From a virus (taxonomy: Duplodnaviria > Heunggongvirae > Uroviricota > Caudoviricetes): a stretch of 27,035 nt of DNA. Below the pieces are notes generated by a model. The model made no database searches and was not told the origin of the DNA. It saw only the letters and a list, made by a program, of their open reading frames with translations. A program made the translations under genes and the position numbers. The number at the start of each line of letters is the position of its first letter. Position 1 is the stretch's first letter. Location: IMG/VR virus record IMGVR_UViG_2617270961_000004; one strand, 5' to 3'. This document shows positions 4,096-27,035 of this stretch, piece after piece.

Positions 4096-7000
4096 TCAGC
4101 TGATACTGATACCTGCTGTGGATTTCTTCATCACCACAACCAGCAGATCGCTGATACTGGTTGTTGGTGTCCAGTTATTCGCTCCTGATGAAGATACGGT
4201 GAATGTCAGTGTCAGCGTCCCCTGTCCGGCAGGCATATCTATAACTGAGGAAAATACGCCCTGAGCATCCGTCGTGGACTGATTAAAAATCTCCTGACCA
4301 TTGCGGGTCACTCTTAACCGGCAGGTTGAATACCAGTATGACTGTTGGTTATTACTGTTGAAATTCTCATGCTTACCACCGCGGAATAACACTGGCGGTA
4401 TCATGACCTGCCGGTCAAATTTCTGATCATCACTGATTCTTACCGTGATGGTGCCACTGGCATAACTGTTCGTGCGGGGGAAAGACTTGCTGACCGTTTT
4501 GACAATATCGCCTTCAATCTGATTGGCTGACAGTTTCCCCTTAATCTGACAGTTTTCATTAATCGTGACATTGTTGAGCGTCCCTGAATTTGCATTCACA
4601 TTACCGCTGATATCCGCATTTTTAGCGGTCAGCTTTCCGTCTGGTGTCAGGGAAAATGCCGGCGGATTTCCACCGCTGGTAATGGTGGGAGCCGTCAGGC
4701 GTTTCAGGAACACGTCGTTCATGAATATCTGATCGCCCTGACCAACAAACATCGGTTTTGTGTTGCCATTCGCAGGATTAACCATCGCAATCCTGTCCGC
4801 CGCCAGCAGCACCTGACTCTGCATGCCGTCAGGGGTATTCTCAATACCGGCACCAATACCCGCGATATAAAGGCGTCCGTCCTGCATCTGCTGCAGCTTC
4901 ACAGCCCACATGCTGTTCAGGTTATTATTTGTATCAACCTGAACCTTCTGTATCTGCTGAATTGCAGCACTCTGGTCTTCCAGTTTCTTATTGACGGTCT
5001 GCGTGATTTCATTGCTGACATCCGTAATGGACGTCCTGATTTCAGCCAGGTCAGGCGCAAGCTGACCGTTATCAATCTGCGTCCACAGCTCCTGAGCCAG
5101 ATGGGTTTTCCCTATCTCGCCTTTGAAAAAATCCAGATAACCGGATGCATCATCACTCGGCTGACCAACAGCCTCCACGAATGCCGATTTGCCAACGGTG
5201 TTCACACTGCGGATATAAAAGTAATAATCATGGCCCGGTTTGATATTGATACTGGCGGCTATCCAGTACAGCGCCGTGCCAAGATAGCGTGCTGTGGTTT
5301 CAACCTGCCTGATATCCGCAATCCGCTTTTCCGAGAACCAGAACTCAAACTGTACCGTCGGATCATAAACCGCAAGATGCGGCGTGGCGGTTATCTGAAA
5401 ATAGCCCGGCGTCAGCTCAATCCGCGACGGCGCTGCCGGTGCGGCAATCCGGAACGATACCGACGCCGGATCGCCCTGCTGCCCCCACGCATTTACTGCC
5501 CGGACTGTCAGCCTGTAGTTCCCCAGCGCCAGTTGTGTGAAGCGGTAAGTGGTTTCCGTCGTCCGGGCCGTGCTGACCAGCCGCTCACTGCCGTCATCCG
5601 CTGTTACGGTCAGACGGAGCAGGAAGCTCACGCCCTTCACCACCTTCGGTGTGTCCCATCGCGCCAGCACCTGATATTCCCCGCTGTCTGCAGTGACTTC
5701 GGCGGTCAGGTGCTGCACTGCTGGCGGCGTGACACCATTCACCGTGCCGCTCTGGTCACCGTCAAAGTGCGCCCCGTTATCCACGATGGCTTCTTTTTCC
5801 GGTACATGCTGCATGGCGGTGATGGCATACGTGCCGTCGTCGTTCTCACGGATACTCACGCAGCGGAACAGGCGCTGGCGCAGCGTCGGCAGCTTCAGCC
5901 CCCACACGCTGTATTCAGCAACGCCGTCAGGAACACGGCTCACTTTCACCTTCACGCCGTCGGTGACGGACTGAACCTCCACGCTGACCGGATTGCCACT
6001 TCCGTCAACCAGGCTTATCAGCGTGGTACCGGAGGATGGCAGCGTGATTTCACGGTCGAGCGTCAGCGTCCGGGTCTGGCTGTTTACCGCCAGCACGCGC
6101 CCGCCGATGCTGATACCGGCATAGTCATCATCACAGATTTCAATGACATCGCCCGGCACATGGCGAAGCCCTTCTGCGCCCACGCTGAAGTCCACGGTCT
6201 GCGTTTCCAGCAGTTCTGTTTTAATCAGCCACAGCCCGGCGCGATGTGCCTGCCCCCGGCTGGTACAGCCAAAGGCATCCATCTTCGTGACATTACGACC
6301 GTAACGGGCAATGGCCTGCGTGTCCTCCACAAGCTCTGTCGCCGTCTCCCAGCCGTTATTCGGGTCAATCCAGTTCACCTCAACGGCATTATGGCGGTCC
6401 TTCAGGGCGCTGAAGCTGTAGCGGAACGGCGCGCCATCATCCGGCATCACCACATTACTGCGGTTATAGGTCCACACCTTATCTGATGGTCGGTCCTGCA
6501 CGAACGTCAGCGTCTGCCCGTTCCATACCGGCATACAGCGCATCGCCGAGCAGAAATCACTGAGCACATCCCACGCCTTGCGCTGTGTGGTCAGGTACGC
6601 ATTACAGGTGATGCGCGGCTCCGTGCCGCCAAAGCCGTCCGGCACTGACTGGTCGCAGTACTGGCCGATGACATACAGCGCCCATTTATCCACATCCGCC
6701 GCACCAAGACGTTTCCCCATGCCGTAGCGCGGATGGGTCAGCATATCCCACAGACACCAGGCCATGTTGTTGCTGTATGCCGGTTTAAACGTTCCGTCCC
6801 AGATACCGCTGTATTGCCGCGTCTGCGGGTTATAGTTCGACGGCACCTGCAGAATGCGCCCGCGCAGATGATAATTACGGCTCACCTGCTGGCTGCCGAA
6901 CTGCTCCGAATCCACCTGCACGCCGACCAGTGCCGTGTTCGGGTAGCCCTGTTTCACATCGATGATTTCGGTGTATGACGACCAGAGCGTTTTGTTCTGC

Positions 7001-7578
7001 AGCTGGTCTGTGGTGCTGTCCGGCGTCATCCTGCGCATCCGGATATTGAACGGGCGCGGCGGCAGGTTACCCACCACCACCGAGGCCAGATACTGCGAGG
7101 TGGTTTTGCCCTTAATGGTGATGTCTTTTTCCGTCACCCAGCCACCATTACGCTGGATCTGAACCAGCAGGCGGACTTCCGACGGATTCCTGTCCCCCTT
7201 TGAGGTGGTTTCCACCAGTGCCTGCACGCCGAAGGTAAAACGCAGTCGGTCAATGTTTGCCGACGTGATGGTCCGGGTGATCGGCGTGTCGTATTTCACT
7301 TCCGTACCCAGCACCGTCTCGGAGCCGGAGGATTCAAATCCCTCCGGCGGTGTCTGCTCCTGCTCACCGGCCCGGAACACCACCGTGACGCCGGAGATAT
7401 TGGTATTCCCCTCACTGTCCAGCACTGGCGTACTGTTCAGCAGCACGCTTTTTAATCCATCCACCGGACCTTCAACCGGCCCTTCGCTGATGGCATCGAT
7501 CACACTCAGCAACTGCGTGGACTTCAGGTTGTCCTTCGCTTCGCGCGGAGTATGCCCCTTACTGCTGCCTTTACCCAT
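4096..7578 (-). CDS. J: tail tip / host specificity protein J (1160 aa)
   Basis: N-terminus [45 protein letters not shown]... and overall length match lambda J as recalled. The C-terminal ~150-200 aa diverge from my recollection of lambda J. Confidence 0.95.
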
Positions 7579-7637
7579 TCCTCACGCTCCATAAACGACA
7601 AAACCGCCCGGAGGCGGTTTCACATAAACGTTTTTCA

Positions 7638-8309
7638 TCATCGACCAATCACCACAACCTGACCACCATCCCCTTCGTCTGCCGTGCTGATCTCCTGAGA
7701 GACCACCCGCGACCCCACGCGCATTTCACCGTACAGAACCGGCAGAACATTGCCCTGGGCAACCATGTTATCCAGTGAGGAGAAATAGGTGTTCTGTTTG
7801 CCGTTATCCGTTGTCTGTGTACGGGGAGTTCTGGCTTTCGGTGCCAGCATCTGCGCCACACCACCGAGCACCATACTGGCACCGAGAGAAAACAGGATGC
7901 CGGTCATACCACCGGCCCCAATGGCTGCCCCCCATGCTGCAAGGGTGGCCCCGGCGGTAAAGAATGATCCGGCAATGGCGGCAGCCCCCAGGACAATCTG
8001 GAATACGCCACCTGACTTGGCCCCGGCGACTCTGGGAACAATATGAATCACAGCGCCATCAGGCAGAGTCTCATGTAACTGCGCCGTTAACCCGGACGTG
8101 CTGACGTCCCGCCCGGCAATCCGTACCTGATACCAGCCGTCGCTCAGTTTCTGACGAAACGCCGGGAGCTGTGTGGCCAGCGCCCGGATGGCTTCAGCCC
8201 CCGTTTTCACACGAAGGTCGATGCGGCGGCCAAATCGTTGTAAATCCCCGTAAAGGCAGATGCGCGCCATGCCCGGTGACGCCAGAGGGAGTGTGTGCGT
8301 CGCTGCCAT
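7638..8309 (-). CDS. I: tail assembly protein I (223 aa)
   Basis: 223 aa, MAATHTLPLASPGMARICLYGDLQRFGRR..., Gly/Ala-rich hydrophobic middle; position between K and J as in lambda. Confidence 0.9.
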   Translation of the reverse strand: MAATHTLPLASPGMARICLYGDLQRFGRRIDLRVKTGAEAIRALATQLPAFRQKLSDGWYQVRIAGRDVSTSGLTAQLHETLPDGAVIHIVPRVAGAKSGGVFQIVLGAAAIAGSFFTAGATLAAWGAAIGAGGMTGILFSLGASMVLGGVAQMLAPKARTPRTQTTDNGKQNTYFSSLDNMVAQGNVLPVLYGEMRVGSRVVSQEISTADEGDGGQVVVIGR

Positions 8310-8950
8310 TTGTCGGTATACCTCTCTCGTTTGCTCAGTTGTTCAGGAATATGGTGCAGCAGCTCGCCGTCACCACAGTAAATGGCGGCATGATTCGGCA
8401 CCGATGAACCAAAACAGCACAGCAGCACATCGCCCGGTTGTGCTGATGACAACGGCACCTGATACAGCCCTGTGGCCTCCAGATTATCCAGATAGAGATT
8501 CTGGCCGTGACGCCACCAGTCATCCCCGCGATGAAAATTCGGCATCTCAATCCCCGCCAGATGATAAGCATCCCGGAACAGCGTGTAACAGTCCGTCACC
8601 CCGTGCTCAAAGCGCCGCCCGGTGAGATGCGGCACACAGCGGAACTTATGAATCGCCCCCCGGCAGACCAGCAACCACGGCAAATCACTCTGCACCTGCA
8701 GCCGCCGGTCAGCCTCACTCAGCCAGGGCAGACCACCGGGGTGGCTGTGGACCAGCGCCACAATCTCACCCTGCATTTCTGCCTGCAGCCAGTCCTCCGG
8801 AGCCATCCGGAAATAATCCTCCGGCTCACCGGAAATATTCACGCAGGGAAAATATCTTTCCCCCTCCGGCGTTCTCACCACGAAGCCGCACGACTCCGCT
8901 GGCGCACATCGCCGGGCGTGCGCCAGAATCGCTGATTCTGTCTCTGTCAT
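8207..8950 (-). CDS. K: tail assembly protein K (MPN/JAMM + NlpC/P60 domains), 247 aa from the ATG 4 nt after the L stop
   Basis: JAMM motif HSHPGGLPWLSEAD and an NlpC/P60-like Cys/His region (GVTDCYTLF...HAAIYCGDGELLHH). The track ORF begins 25 codons upstream inside L and was trimmed. An internal ATG at 8804-8806 would give 199 aa but would cut the MPN domain. The 3' end overlaps the I start by 103 nt. Confidence 0.8.
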   Translation of the reverse strand: MTETESAILAHARRCAPAESCGFVVRTPEGERYFPCVNISGEPEDYFRMAPEDWLQAEMQGEIVALVHSHPGGLPWLSEADRRLQVQSDLPWLLVCRGAIHKFRCVPHLTGRRFEHGVTDCYTLFRDAYHLAGIEMPNFHRGDDWWRHGQNLYLDNLEATGLYQVPLSSAQPGDVLLCCFGSSVPNHAAIYCGDGELLHHIPEQLSKRERYTDKWQRRTHSLWRHRAWRASAFTGIYNDLAAASTFV

Positions 8951-8954
8951 GGGA

Positions 8955-9653
8955 TTACTGCGAAAGTTTGTTAATGGAAAGGAAGCCACCAAAGTTGCCG
9001 ACGTTATTGCGAAACTTACAGCCACTCAGGCATTTGCTGCATTTATCCTTCGTGATATCGGACGTCGGCTGGTCATATTCATCCGCGACAGCCGGACCGC
9101 TATAACCGCACTCGTCACCGCGATAGGTCCAGGTGCAGGTGTTGGCCAGCATGATACGTCCCGGAAAAACAGCGCCATCCGTTTCCGTCGGCGTGGACAG
9201 TACAAAGGAGGCACTCACCGCGCTCAGTTCGCTGCACTGCTCGATGCGCCAGCGGCTGATCACCTCCTGCTCCGGATCGGCGTCACTGTTTCCGTTGACG
9301 AAGTTCACCGCATCCAGAAAACGGGCGTAAACCTTACGCCGGACCACCGTTCCGCCGACAAGACTCTGCAGATCTTCCGCCATCCCGGTGACCATACCGT
9401 ACAGGTTAGAAACCGTCAGCGTGGGGCGCGTACTGGTGCCTTTGCCATTCAGTTCAAAACCGCTCCCCTGAATGGGATACGGCTGATACTGTCGCCCCTG
9501 CCAGGTGACCGGCTCACCTTTTTCGTTCTGCTCATTACAGAAAAAATAACGTTCTCCACCGACCTCTGTCAGGTCGATTTCCCAGAGCACCACGCTGGCC
9601 GACTGCTCCGCACGGGTGCATTCATTCAGTGTTTCCTGCCGGATATCCTGCAT
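8955..9653 (-). CDS. L: tail tip protein L (232 aa)
   Basis: 232 aa, MQDIRQETLNECTRAEQSASVVLWEIDLTEVGGERYFFCNE..., C-terminal Cys cluster. Start overlaps the M stop by 1 nt. Confidence 0.9.
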   Translation of the reverse strand: MQDIRQETLNECTRAEQSASVVLWEIDLTEVGGERYFFCNEQNEKGEPVTWQGRQYQPYPIQGSGFELNGKGTSTRPTLTVSNLYGMVTGMAEDLQSLVGGTVVRRKVYARFLDAVNFVNGNSDADPEQEVISRWRIEQCSELSAVSASFVLSTPTETDGAVFPGRIMLANTCTWTYRGDECGYSGPAVADEYDQPTSDITKDKCSKCLSGCKFRNNVGNFGGFLSINKLSQ

Positions 9654-9982
9654 CAGTTCACCACCTGTTCAAACTCTGCGCTGAACTCAACACGCAGCAT
9701 ACTGACCCGCGACGACCATTTTGCGCAGGTCACCTTTATCTGCCGCCACTCATAAGGCGGCGTCCACAGAAAGGCTTTCCAGCCCCCGTGCTCTTCCAGA
9801 AACGACTCCAGTACCGTGGCCTCCTCACGGGGGACAGAAAGCGTCACGCTGTACGTTTTCAGGTTGGCATTCAGCCCGGCAGGCGCTCGCTGGGAATAGC
9901 CATCACCAAAGCGCACCTTTCTTACAGAAGGGGCCGAAGCCACATCCATACCGGGTTTCACTTTCCAGCGGAAGGTTTTCAT
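9653..9982 (-). CDS. M: tail tip protein M (109 aa)
   Basis: 109 aa, MKTFRWKVKPGMDVASAPSVRKVRFGDGYSQRA...; ATGA overlap with the H stop. Confidence 0.9.
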   Translation of the reverse strand: MKTFRWKVKPGMDVASAPSVRKVRFGDGYSQRAPAGLNANLKTYSVTLSVPREEATVLESFLEEHGGWKAFLWTPPYEWRQIKVTCAKWSSRVSMLRVEFSAEFEQVVN

Positions 9983-23275: not shown

Positions 23276-23509
23276 ATGTCAACGAAGAACAGAACCCGCA
23301 GAACAACAACCCGCAACATCCGCTTTCCTAACCCAATGATTGAACAAATTAACATCGCTCTTGATCAAAAAGGGTCCGGGAATTTCTCAGCCTGGGTCAT
23401 TGAAGCCTGCCGCCGGAGACTGTGCTCAGAAAAAAGAGTTTCTCCTGAAGCAAACAAAGAAAAGAGTGACATTACTGAATTGCTCAGAAAACAGATCAGA
23501 CCAGATTGA
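23276..23509 (+). CDS. small basic putative ribbon-helix-helix (Arc/CopG-like) DNA-binding protein, 77 aa
   Basis: AT-rich ORF on the strand opposite the phage late genes. Basic N-terminus (MSTKNRTRRTTTRN), then a beta-strand-like IRFPNPMIEQINIAL and helix SAWVIEACRRRL resembling the RHH fold. Weak SD; family assignment is inference. Confidence 0.5.
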   Translation: MSTKNRTRRTTTRNIRFPNPMIEQINIALDQKGSGNFSAWVIEACRRRLCSEKRVSPEANKEKSDITELLRKQIRPD

Positions 23510-23565
23510 AGCAATTTAGATAATCGTGCAGACTACACCCCTCATATCACATGGAAGGTACTACA

Positions 23566-23976
23566 ATGGCTCAGGTTGCCATTTTTAAACAAATATTCGA
23601 TAAAGTGCGAAATAATTTAAACTATCACTGGTTTTATTCTGAACTAAAACGTCACAATGTCTCACATTACATTTACTATTTAGCCACAGAGAATATTCAT
23701 CTTGTTCTTGAAAACGATAATACGGTTTTAATAAAAGGACAGGGTAAGGTTGTAAATGTAAGATTTTCAAAAAATAAATGCCTTATAGAAGCCACCTTAA
23801 AGGGATTCAAATCAGGAGAGTTATCATTTTACGAATACAGGAAAAATCTTGCTACAGCAGGGGTTTTCAGATGGATTACAAATATCCACGAAAACAAAAG
23901 GTATTACTATACCTTTGATAATTCATTACTCTTTACTGAGAACATTCAGAACACTACACAAATATTTCCGCACTAA
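23566..23976 (+). CDS. hypothetical protein, 136 aa; tentatively DUF1398 / YbcV-like prophage protein
   Basis: AT-rich ORF with a GGAAGG SD 7 nt upstream of the ATG at 23566; the track ORF starts 5 codons earlier at an ATG with no SD. No signal peptide or transmembrane segment. The length equals that recalled for the E. coli DLP12 YbcV protein, which lies next to lysis genes in that prophage; the identity is unverified. Confidence 0.55.
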
Positions 23977-24263
23977 ATCATAACGTCCGGTTTCTTCCGT
24001 GCCAGAACCGGACTCGCTGGCATGATGAAATATGTGTACCCGGTAACCCCGGTGTGCATCGTTTTTGATTATTCCCACACACTCGCGCAGAAGGAGTTCC
24101 CCGTCGGGCTACGGTCTCTGTTAATACGGGAATACGGCGACGATACAGCGCATGATGTGTCAGGCTTGAATACCTTTATCCTTTAAAAGGGATATCAGTT
24201 AAGTTATCCCGTGTAGGGTATAAGCCATTATCAAACTCTGTAGGAAGTGGCTTTTGTAATGGC

Positions 24264-24290
24264 AATAAAAAGCCCCGCGAATGCGAGGCT
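24264..24290 (-). terminator. rho-independent terminator candidate downstream of Rz
   Basis: Hairpin agccccgc-gaat-gcgaggct (7 bp, one mismatch) followed on the minus strand by TTTTATT; positioned ~170 nt after the Rz stop. Confidence 0.5.
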
Positions 24291-24463
24291 AAATCCTGGT
24301 ATTTGTAATGACTGGCTCTTATCTCAACGCAGCCCCTTACCGCGCGCAAAATGCTCAATATCAAGCATCAGCAATGAGATGTTTAATCTGGATTCACTCC
24401 AGAAGTGAGCACCACCCTGTCTACAGAGCCAGATGTGAAGGATGATGAGTAAAATTATCGCTA

Positions 24464-24931
24464 TCATCGAAGGCATTGCGTCCTGATGTATTCCTGAAGC
24501 GTTCTCAGTGCTGTTTGGTCGCGGATAATTCCGTCCCGGATACCGAGAACGTTTCGTCCAGCAACTGGAGAGAGTTCGACGGTGGCATCATTGCCCATGC
24601 CGGAGGCGCTGGAGGTTTCGACTGAGGATGGCACAGGGCATTTTCCTTTGACGAGCACCCGACCACCATTATCAAGCTTGCGCCGAAGAGCATCATTTTC
24701 AGCTTTCGCATCAGCTAACTCCTTCGTGTATTTATCATCGAGTGCATCAGCATCACGCTGGCGCTGCTGCATGTCAGTAATGGTGGCGTTCGCCTTCTCC
24801 AGTTCACTGGCCTTGTTATCGCGCTGTTCTTTGTAGGCGATTGCATTATCACGGTAATGATTAACAGCCCATGACAGGCAGACGATGATGCAGATAACCA
24901 GAGCGGAGATAATCGCGGTTACCCTGCTCAT
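24464..24931 (-). CDS. Rz: spanin inner-membrane subunit Rz (i-spanin), 155 aa
   Basis: [38 protein letters not shown]...: N-terminal transmembrane helix then a coiled-coil periplasmic domain. ATG at 24929-24931 overlaps the R stop as ATGA; the track ORF starts 4 codons upstream at a GTG. Confidence 0.85.
24505..24711 (-). CDS. Rz1: spanin outer-membrane lipoprotein subunit Rz1 (o-spanin), 68 aa, embedded in Rz in the +1 frame
   Basis: [21 protein letters not shown]...: signal peptide plus lipobox (VVGC), Pro-rich mature part ([13 protein letters not shown]); AAGGAG SD 7 nt upstream. Fully nested inside Rz as in lambda. Confidence 0.75.
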
Positions 24932-25425
24932 TGTTGCCCCCACAAACAGACCTCACGCTCAATCTCACGACGAGTCATCAGGCCTTTCCATTGCTTACCG
25001 CCAGCGTATGCCCAGCGACGTAGCTGGTCACATGCGCCCTTGATATCGCCCTGGTTTATTTTGCGAAGAAGAGTAGATGTTCTGAAATTGCCTGCGCCCA
25101 CGTTATAGACGAACGAGTAAAGAGCGCCGCGCGTTGTTTCCGGTATATCGACTTTGATGTACGGGTTAATTTGTCTGGCTACCGTGGCAAGGTCTTTATT
25201 CAGGAGGGCTTTGCATTCTGCTTCGGTATACGTTTTACCGGGAATGATGTCTTTTCCTGTATGCCCGTGACATACAGTCCATACGCCAACGATATCTTTG
25301 TATGGTATGTAGCTGACACCTTCCAGACCATCGTTACCACTTGGGCCAGTGATTAACACTGATGCTATAGCAATTGCTCCGCCACCAATAGCAGCAGCAA
25401 CGGCTTTTCGTAATGATGGAGGCAT
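24928..25425 (-). CDS. R: SAR endolysin (phage-21 R-type lysozyme, T4-lysozyme-like GH24), 165 aa
   Basis: N-terminal signal-anchor-release segment ([20 protein letters not shown]) followed by the lysozyme catalytic region ([23 protein letters not shown]). Length and sequence match phage 21 R as recalled; this is not the lambda R transglycosylase. Confidence 0.9.
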
Positions 25426-25640
25426 TATTCACCTCTCGCAGCCTTGCGCTTATCTTCTTTAATCTTGAAATAAAGGTTTGTCAGGTACGTCAGCAGGCCA
25501 AATACCAAGCTACCCAGCACACCTATTGCTGCCCACTGTGAGGGCGTGACTTTATCGAGCAGCTGTAAAAACCAGTAGCCAGCACTGCCTGCGGAGGTGC
25601 CGTAGGCAATGCCCGTTGTTAACTTATCCATGGATTTCAT
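25425..25640 (-). CDS. S: pinholin S21-type (class II holin), 71 aa, dual-start motif
   Basis: [28 protein letters not shown]...[23 protein letters not shown]...: two transmembrane domains, Met1-Lys-Ser-Met4 dual start (antiholin/holin), charged C-terminus. GGAGGTGAGG SD. Stop overlaps the R start by 1 nt. Confidence 0.9.
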
Positions 25641-25735
25641 AGCCTCACCTCCGCAAATAACGGATGGTGTACACGGTTCGGAACGAAGAGGAAAGGTATA
25701 GAAGTTACATTAGCGTAAGGCTTGAACATCTATTC

Positions 25736-25766
25736 AAAAAGAAAAACGCCGCGATTATTCTGGCGT
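25736..25766 (-). terminator. weak terminator-like hairpin plus T-tract between the AraC-like gene and S
   Basis: 5-bp stem acgcc/ggcgt with an 11-nt loop, followed on the minus strand by TTTTTCTTTT; ~60 nt after the AraC-like stop and ~100 nt before the S start. The stem is weak, so low confidence. Confidence 0.3.
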
Positions 25767-25827
25767 AGCTGAAAGCATCATACAATTATCAAATACGAAA
25801 ATTACAAAATCATTAAAACGCATCACG

Positions 25828-26568
25828 TTACATCATGTCTTTTTCTAAAAAAAATCTTGATGAATATTGATGGGGAGGAACACCAAAATACCTTCTGAAA
25901 ACACTTACAAAATATGACGTGTTTTCATAACCGCATATCTCAGCAACTTTTCCAACAGAATATAAATTGTAGCTTAATAACCTTTCCGCCATCACCATTC
26001 GCTCTTCAAGAATTAACTTACTAAATGATAAGCCTTCGTGCTTTAATTTTCTTTTTAACAGACTTTCACTCAGATACAGTCTTGAAGATATATCACAAAG
26101 TCTCCATGCTGCAGATATATCCGTGTGAACAATAGCCTTAACTTTACTTCCTAAACTATTAAGACATCCAAATAAAAAACTTTGCACTATTTTCTCTGAA
26201 GATAAGATAGCAAGACATGCAAGTGATATTTGATTTCTAACAAAATCCACAGTTCTGCCATCACAATTCAAGCATGCAATCAAGTTCTTTAACAATGAAA
26301 AATCTTCACATTCCACCATCACGTATGCCGGATAAAACCTTCTTACAGAAAAAGGTGAGAGTGTGTTGCTTTTAAAGAAATCATTAACTGTTTTCTCTTC
26401 AACATCTACGATCATTACATGATCTATATTTGATGAAAAAAAATCTTTTAAATTGTAATCAATGAGAACAGCACTTCCTTTTTTAAACAAAATATCTTCT
26501 TTACCAATTCGGACATCAAACGAGTTCAACACCAAAATGATAGAACATATGTATGGCATATTATCCAC
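25828..26568 (-). CDS. AraC/XylS-family transcriptional regulator (GadX/YdeO/AppY-like subfamily), 246 aa
   Basis: C-terminal AraC-type HTH (LYLSESLLKRKLKHEGLSFSKLILEERM...VGKVAEICGYENTSYFVSVFRRYFGVPPHQY). Strongly AT-rich compared with the flanking phage genes. GGTGG SD. Subfamily assignment is from recalled similarity to E. coli YdeO. Confidence 0.85.
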   Translation of the reverse strand: MDNMPYICSIILVLNSFDVRIGKEDILFKKGSAVLIDYNLKDFFSSNIDHVMIVDVEEKTVNDFFKSNTLSPFSVRRFYPAYVMVECEDFSLLKNLIACLNCDGRTVDFVRNQISLACLAILSSEKIVQSFLFGCLNSLGSKVKAIVHTDISAAWRLCDISSRLYLSESLLKRKLKHEGLSFSKLILEERMVMAERLLSYNLYSVGKVAEICGYENTSYFVSVFRRYFGVPPHQYSSRFFLEKDMM

Positions 26569-26780
26569 CTGATATCATTGGGGTTACACCAGGTAAGTAT
26601 AGGTGGAAAATCAATATTCGCCAGTTCAACAATAAGGAAAATTTCATTGCATCACAAGTATAAAATTATGTATTTAACTCACAAAGACAAATTATTAAAC
26701 CAATCCGTTATATTATATATAGCTGCGTGGAATCATAATATTATATATTTTGACTGGCATGTTTACCAACTTTAAGTTGC

Positions 26781-27035
26781 GGTAATGACTCCAACTTATT
26801 GATAGTGTTTTATGTTCAGATAATGCCCGATGACTTTGTCATGCAGCTCCACCGATTTTGAGAACGACAGCGACTTCCGTCCCAGCCGTGCCAGGTGCTG
26901 CCTCAGATTCAGGTTATGCCGCTCAATTCGCTGCGTATATCGCTTGCTGATTACGTGCAGCTTTCCCTTCAGGCGGGATTCATACAGCGGCCAGCCATCC
27001 GTCATCCATATCACCACGTCAAAGGGTGACAGCAG
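26781..27035 (-). mobile_element. IS1 insertion sequence, right-end 255 bp (truncated by window edge)
   Basis: Terminal inverted repeat ggtaatgactccaacttattgatagtg beginning at 26781, followed by sequence matching the insB 3' end of IS1 as recalled. The rest of the element lies outside the window. Confidence 0.9.
26796..27035 (-). CDS. insB: IS1 transposase InsB, C-terminal part (partial; 5' end outside window)
   Basis: Translation ...[76 protein letters not shown] matches the InsB C-terminus; the reading frame stays open to the window end. Confidence 0.85.

Follow-up and report, generated by a model that had tools for sequence, protein, structure and literature searches.

Regulators of the AraC family that are carried by prophages are already known to feed the acid-resistance network of Escherichia coli; AppY, PatE and PsrA/PsrB are the described cases. 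PatE, which is encoded by a prophage of E. coli O157:H7 (CP-933H/Sp1), is reported to activate gadE, gadBC and hdeAB and to lower transcripts of the enterocyte effacement locus (LEE). The patE gene (Z0321) is RpoS-dependent. Of its relatives, PsrB is reported to activate gadE/hdeA as well and to bind the same hdeA region as PatE and the gadE promoter, and both PsrA and PsrB to act on the acid-stress island and to repress type III secretion, in each case through GadE/YhiF; expression of psrA/gadE is tied to xenogeneic silencing control. Here we analyze a further gene of this kind, an AraC/XylS-family regulator gene at 25828..26559 on the minus strand of a 27,035-nucleotide stretch of tailed-phage DNA (IMG/VR record IMGVR_UViG_2617270961_000004; the whole stretch is called the window below). 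Comparison with its relatives places the encoded protein of 243 residues in the prophage-specific PatE/PsrA/PsrB clade. The explanation that we favor, with a probability of about 0.6, is that a DLP12/lambda-like temperate phage carries the gene in its Q-to-S slot as a moron, an accessory unit with a promoter and a terminator of its own, and that the gene product acts on host acid-fitness genes. The effects on acid resistance and the LEE that had been proposed for it from the DNA sequence alone (the original prediction) match the published roles of its closest characterized relatives, PatE, PsrA and PsrB.

The original prediction had also assigned the gene to the AraC/XylS family, and a hidden Markov model search bore this out: the Pfam models HTH_18 and HTH_AraC scored 54.9 and 43.2 bits, against gathering cut-offs of 33.6 and 26.6, with the Pfam match covering residues 161-237. 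This match falls in a C-terminal DNA-binding domain with two helix-turn-helix motifs (residues 133-236; 25852..26163, minus strand), which is preceded by an N-terminal regulatory domain comprising a beta-rich part and helices (residues 1-132; 26164..26559, minus strand). In the AlphaFold model, whose predicted local distance difference test score is about 80, helices and then the double helix-turn-helix domain come after strands at residues 3-54 and 79-82. Foldseek aligned both domains of the model to Rns, CsvR and ToxT (E = 1e-9 to 1e-5), and a PDB sequence search agreed with these matches. Rns, CsvR and ToxT are the best full-length structural matches and share the beta-rich N-terminal domain and the double helix-turn-helix; they differ in having only 15-20% sequence identity and a relative domain orientation unlike that of the regulator model (root mean square deviation about 15 Å). 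The helical domain alone superimposes on the DNA-binding domain of GadX (3mkl) with a deviation of 2.1 Å and 39% identity. In PHROGs, the protein is assigned to phrog_1450, whose function is listed as unknown.

Within the family, the gene had been described as YdeO/GadX/AppY-like. This holds for the broad subfamily: YdeO, GadW, GadX, AppY and EnvY of E. coli K-12 have the same two-domain layout and regulate acid-resistance or related stress genes, and AppY is itself prophage-borne. As a statement of closest kinship it needs to be replaced by the PatE/Psr clade. The top NCBIfam match was YdeO (NF007407) with 127.4 bits (E = 7e-37) against a cut-off of 348, and GadX (NF007432) reached 84.3 bits, in the C-terminal part only, against a cut-off of 500; scores so far under the equivalog cut-offs imply that the regulator is neither YdeO nor GadX. 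Full-length identity is 33% to GadW, 32% to YdeO and 31% to AppY, and lies at 29-33% when EnvY is included, whereas GadX aligns in the DNA-binding domain alone (about 40%).

Comparisons with O157:H7 were made with the Sakai genome (NC_002695.2). Here the full-length identity rises to 53% for ECs0287, which we take to be Z0321/PatE because the Sakai prophage Sp1 has no other AraC-type gene, Sp1 itself being taken as CP-933H/OI-8. PsrA (ECs1087, re-extended to 237 residues) is 47% identical over 159 aligned residues. The two domains contribute very differently to these values. In the DNA-binding domain, the regulator is 70% identical to PatE, 55% to PsrA and 39-45% to GadX, GadW and YdeO; its N-terminal domain, with 39% identity to PatE and 26% to PsrA, is far more divergent. 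A neighbor-joining tree grouped the regulator with PatE at 100% bootstrap support and joined PsrA to this pair at 99%, with YdeO, GadX/EnvY and GadW/AppY on separate branches.

PatE is the nearest characterized relative, and the two proteins have SESLLKRKLK in common, without a change, as the first recognition helix. They have about 245 residues each and are encoded by AT-rich, prophage-borne genes, and the DNA upstream of the two genes is alike as well, with a TGGCA-N17/18-TATACT element and an AGGTGG/GGGGGG ribosome-binding site. The surroundings differ: patE is found in a decayed prophage remnant beside pin and tail-fiber fragments, not in an intact Q–S slot. PsrA and PsrB (ECs1087 in Sp4; z1789 and z2104) form a sister clade. 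The psrA gene occupies the same late-operon slot as the regulator gene; it differs in that what comes directly after it is not S but tRNA genes and effector/pch loci, and in having a GC content of 42%, compared with 32% here.

The region between positions 25641 and 26780 is exactly the DNA between the start codon of S and the end of an IS1 element, and it holds a single long open reading frame, 25828..26568 on the minus strand. Read from its GTG codon, this frame has the 246 codons given in the original prediction. Translation almost certainly begins instead at the ATG at 26559, which yields 243 residues, because this is the RefSeq annotation in a 99.9%-identical genome, because it restores a conserved N-terminus, and because the GTG lies inside the Shine-Dalgarno sequence AGGTGG (26565..26570, minus strand), 5 nt 5' of the ATG. 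The N-terminal motif M-x-x-x-C-S, which the regulator shares, opens YdeO, GadW, AppY, PatE and PsrA when the N-termini are aligned, and is lacking in GadX and EnvY; the ribosome-binding site, CAGGTGG, is conserved upstream of the gene among its relatives. In the same alignment, the deposited start of psrA (ECs_1087; retrieved Sakai locus 23678-24391) looks too short: the gene is annotated with 195 residues, the open reading frame reaches 42 codons further upstream to MVVVCSVIMV…, and the extended N-terminus fits the conserved start of the family.

The gene and its upstream spacer have a GC content of 32%. This sets them apart, as had been predicted, from S, R and Rz (49-52%), from blc, ybgA and Q (43-48%) and from the structural genes in positions 1-23000 of the window (56%); in base composition, the gene is foreign to the phage.

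The window covers a lambdoid prophage's late half, which is read on the minus strand. Its contents, taken from right to left, are the IS1 end, the regulator, holin S, endolysin R, spanin Rz, and then terminase, head, tail and tail-fiber genes. The regulator gene shares its strand with S, R, Rz and the structural genes and ends 187 bp before S, as expected for the late-strand position upstream of S that had been claimed for it. Relatives show what an intact copy of the locus looks like. The uninterrupted order is Q, blc (a lipocalin gene on the opposite strand), ybgA (DUF523/DUF1722), the AraC gene, S, R and Rz; it is found in E. coli EC291, in S1-ISR-02-A (with an 87% allele) and in a Qin-like prophage of E. 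coli B ATCC 11303 (89% allele). The isolated phages IdasGreatGrand and Lambda_2G7a also bear the Q-blc-ybgA-AraC-S cassette. Among viral sequences, 251 IMG/VR contigs encode a relative; in the best 80 of these, which are 84-99% identical and were the ones analyzed, S lies about 190 bp downstream in 79 and Q-blc-ybgA lies upstream in 73. In intact relatives, then, gene order makes the regulator part of a three-gene cargo block (blc, ybgA, AraC). More distant members keep the slot. Two relatives with 64% and 56% identity lie directly downstream of two other Q families, the 56% one directly upstream of a P21-type holin, and psrA in Sakai Sp4 is likewise downstream of Q, so the Q–S slot is the typical home of the whole clade. 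Neither ybgA nor blc is adjacent to the 64% relative, the 56% relative or psrA.

Other cargo is familiar from this position, in which the regulator gene is read by the late transcript on induction. The stx genes of Stx phages sit in the lambdoid Q–S slot, and the nmpC/lc porin gene of DLP12 and PA-2 occupies the same position. Unlike these, the regulator is a transcription factor gene that brings a terminator of its own and has blc and ybgA as companions. K-12 DLP12 has the order quuD, nmpC, essD, that is, nmpC in the slot and the same S/R/Rz family without the regulator gene. A search of complete E. coli genomes found the regulator gene in 1043 of 5426 (about 19%) at a nucleotide identity of at least 80%. 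Because nmpC fills the DLP12 slot and the gene is limited to these genomes, the comparison identifies the regulator as accessory cargo and not as a core phage gene, in line with the original prediction.

The E. coli copies fall into three alleles; more than 1000 genomes have kept the reading frame intact, as have phages that form plaques or can be induced. Matches labeled as plasmids are very large records, from 280 kb to 4.9 Mb, several of them chromosome-sized. In a large protein database, the clade is represented by few clusters; all source names that are given are E. coli, and most clusters are unnamed. A pattern-based scan of one genome per species returned one close copy, its other two matches being weak generic AraC domains. 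Within the limits of that scan, the PatE/Psr-type clade looks restricted to E. coli. The close copy (98% identical) is on a 3.2-kb contig, JARKOR010000151.1, of a 'Candidatus Nanosynbacter' (Saccharibacteria) bin and is almost certainly mis-binned E. coli phage DNA. A literature search found no publication on this regulator subfamily and no paper that cites the RefSeq accessions of its alleles; a study of infant-gut coliphages counts blc among the lambda morons, and one genome there labels the AraC gene 'putative transcription regulator'.

Comparison of the three alleles shows purifying selection on the coding sequence, with dN/dS of about 0.2-0.27 for the whole gene and 0.11-0.14 for the DNA-binding domain. 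Compared with the allele of E. coli B (retrieved locus 6010-6723), the window allele is very uneven in its synonymous divergence, at 0.10 in the N-terminal domain and 0.78 in the DNA-binding domain. This points to recombination within the gene and suggests that domains have been shuffled among mosaic alleles.

The gene is flanked by signals that would allow it to be transcribed as a unit of its own. Downstream, between the regulator and S, lies an intrinsic-terminator-like hairpin with a T-run (25736..25766, the hairpin at 25742..25766, minus strand), which could be recognized only by comparison with relatives. The common form among the alleles is ACGCCAG-AATAATCG-CTGGCGT followed by TTTTCTTTTT, with a 7-bp stem of -11.3 kcal/mol, and copies with the intact stem carry CGCTGGCG. 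In the window allele, as in EC291, one T is missing, which leaves a 5-bp outer stem with two inner pairs at -7.3 kcal/mol. The weak terminator-like hairpin of the original prediction is thus present, as a copy of a conserved terminator with a 1-nt deletion, and the lost T explains both the word 'weak' and the failure of a consensus terminator scan to report any site in 25300-27035. The 190-nt intergenic RNA between the regulator and S folds no better than shuffled sequence (z = -0.17). Among the best 80 of the 251 viral contigs, the intact stem is present in 61 and the 1-nt deletion in 18; at this position, the 56%-identical relative forms another stem, which is as strong as the common form.

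Upstream, we identified a candidate proximal promoter at 26596..26624 on the minus strand, consisting of a -35-like CTGGCG (26619-26624), a 17-nt spacer and the -10 sequence TATACT (26596-26601), about 35 nt before the ATG. The -10 sequence is TATACT in five of six aligned genes (the window, the S1-ISR allele, the 64% and 56% relatives and Sakai patE) and TATAAT in psrA, and the element in relatives reads TTGGCA/TTGGTA-N17-18-TATACT. A consensus promoter scan missed this element in the window allele. It gave distal matches at 26769..26740, 26760..26732 and 26684..26657; with 4 matches found against 5.5 expected from shuffled sequence, and conservation only among close alleles, these were rejected and the proximal element is preferred. 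The promoter-like element, the gene and the terminator together fit the classical layout of a moron.

These observations lead to a model of how the regulator might work. In the lysogen, the gene would be transcribed from its own proximal promoter. Its expression would probably be low, through H-NS acting on the AT-rich DNA, and would go up, as that of patE does, in stationary phase or in response to stress, while the terminator would shield the holin and endolysin genes (S/R/Rz) from transcription during lysogeny. The protein is predicted to bind the AT-rich promoters of the host acid-fitness island, gadE and hdeAB, as PatE and PsrB do. Glutamate-dependent acid resistance would increase as a result and, in LEE-positive hosts, type III secretion would be reduced via GadE. 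Upon induction, Q-modified RNA polymerase would transcribe the entire cassette and continue into S, R and Rz. Binding to the acid-fitness-island promoters that are bound by PatE and PsrB is the most likely function of the regulator, and we would put it at slightly better than even odds. The argument is that PatE and PsrA, at only 51% identity between their DNA-binding domains, belong to groups that nevertheless share targets, and that the regulator is closer than this to both.

Several points weigh against this model. We infer the shared targets from the similarity of the DNA-binding domains, and the specificity of AraC-family proteins can shift with few residues. The N-terminal domain has diverged so far from that of PatE that input signals or partners may differ. 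The window allele combines its poor -35 sequence with a weakened terminator, and any distal regulatory DNA has been lost to the IS1 element, which lies 221 bp upstream of the start.

Some of the same features would be expected if the gene were inert cargo, fully silenced by H-NS in the lysogen and expressed only in the late transcript of a doomed cell, with no regulatory effect. The low GC content, the weak -35 of the window allele and the finding that promoter-like sites in the consensus scan are no more frequent than in shuffled sequence are all in keeping with this idea. We nevertheless consider it unlikely: selection has preserved the protein, most strongly in the DNA-binding domain; more than 1000 genomes, and active phages too, have kept the frame open; conservation of the terminator and the -10 sequence extends across relatives that have diverged by 50%; and patE and psrA are expressed and have phenotypes. 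A different objection is that the regulator might serve the phage, controlling ybgA and blc, the lysis cassette or the choice between lysis and lysogeny instead of host regulons. AraC-family proteins often regulate their neighbors, and the gene is tightly linked to S, at about 190 bp in 79 of the 80 contigs, as well as to ybgA and blc in this lineage. The distant relatives and psrA, however, manage without adjacent ybgA or blc, phages with the same S/R/Rz and Q genes get by without the regulator gene, the characterized members of the clade act on host promoters, and a repeat search around the gene found no operator-like repeats; taken together, this makes a phage-directed role quite improbable.

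It could also be asked whether the gene is simply an orthologue or functional duplicate of chromosomal YdeO, GadX, GadW or AppY, given that YdeO is its top NCBIfam match and that the N-terminal M-x-x-x-C-S-V-I motif and the SESLLKxKL recognition helix are shared. Orthology is refuted by the equivalog cut-offs, by identities of just 31-33% and by the tree, in which support for placement with PatE/Psr is 99-100%, and we regard the proposal as a whole as highly implausible. The reading as a host-directed moron of the Q–S slot remains the one that we prefer.

The genes downstream of the regulator form a lysis cassette on the minus strand. Its first gene is a holin S of the phage 21 type (25425..25640; Pfam Phage_holin_2_1, E = 2e-35), annotated as essD in relatives; it is followed by the RrrD-like lysozyme R, the endolysin (24928..25425; Phage_lysozyme, E = 9e-46), and by the spanin Rz (24464..24943; Phage_lysis, E = 7e-29). 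The open reading frame list contains an Rz1-like lipoprotein frame embedded in Rz (24505..24711, minus strand), which opens with a lipoprotein signal, as expected for the Rz1 o-spanin; RefSeq relatives have a small hypothetical protein nearby. Beyond Rz, a second AT-rich island (23276-23976, GC 32-35%) separates the cassette from the terminase genes and looks like a further cargo block. Its genes lie on the plus strand, opposite to the late genes, and encode a YlcI/DUF3950 protein (23276..23509) and a DUF1398/YbcV-like protein (23551..23976). An Rfam search found no RNA family in or near the regulator region; at the tail-fiber end of the window it returned a match to family IS009 (RF02111) at 44-242 on the minus strand, with 220 bits against a gathering score of 117.

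At its right end, the window runs off within the IS1 element, of which the end encoding the InsB C-terminus is present (26781..27035, minus strand; Pfam DDE_Tnp_IS1, E = 7e-39). E. coli matches to the non-IS sequence end at 26780, and the insertion lies in the ybgA–AraC intergenic region. In E. coli strain ET650, an IS1 occupies exactly this position; a 9-bp duplication, TTAAGTTGC, is visible there, and ybgA, blc and Q lie beyond the element, so the same three genes are expected past the end of the window. The two IS1 copies differ at 21 of 255 comparable positions (window 26781-27035; retrieved ET650 locus 7537-9934). The shared site therefore means either that a hot spot was hit independently in each case or that IS1 conversion took place. 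The AraC gene of ET650 is closely followed, on its downstream side, by a second IS1, which has taken the place of the lysis and structural genes, so that two IS1 copies bracket the regulator as in a composite transposon. This arrangement is seen only in ET650; in the window, S follows the gene directly, and a composite IS1 transposon carrying the regulator is unsupported here.

A more far-reaching possibility is that the subfamily, whose members include those of E. coli B and of infant-gut lambda-like phages, is more than a redundant copy of PatE. Its alleles might sense different signals, as the diverged N-terminal domain and the apparent domain shuffling would allow; phages of commensals might give their lysogens an advantage in acid passage and colonization; and the weakened terminator might couple transcription of the regulator to low-level expression of the holin and endolysin. 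We think it rather improbable that the subfamily goes this far.

Seen against the prophage regulators that were known before, the gene is a sensible candidate, and neither a surprise nor a new mechanism. It extends the picture of such regulators from O157:H7 to a subfamily that commensal and laboratory E. coli, as well as inducible gut phages, commonly carry, and it could contribute to stomach passage and colonization by the lysogens that carry it.

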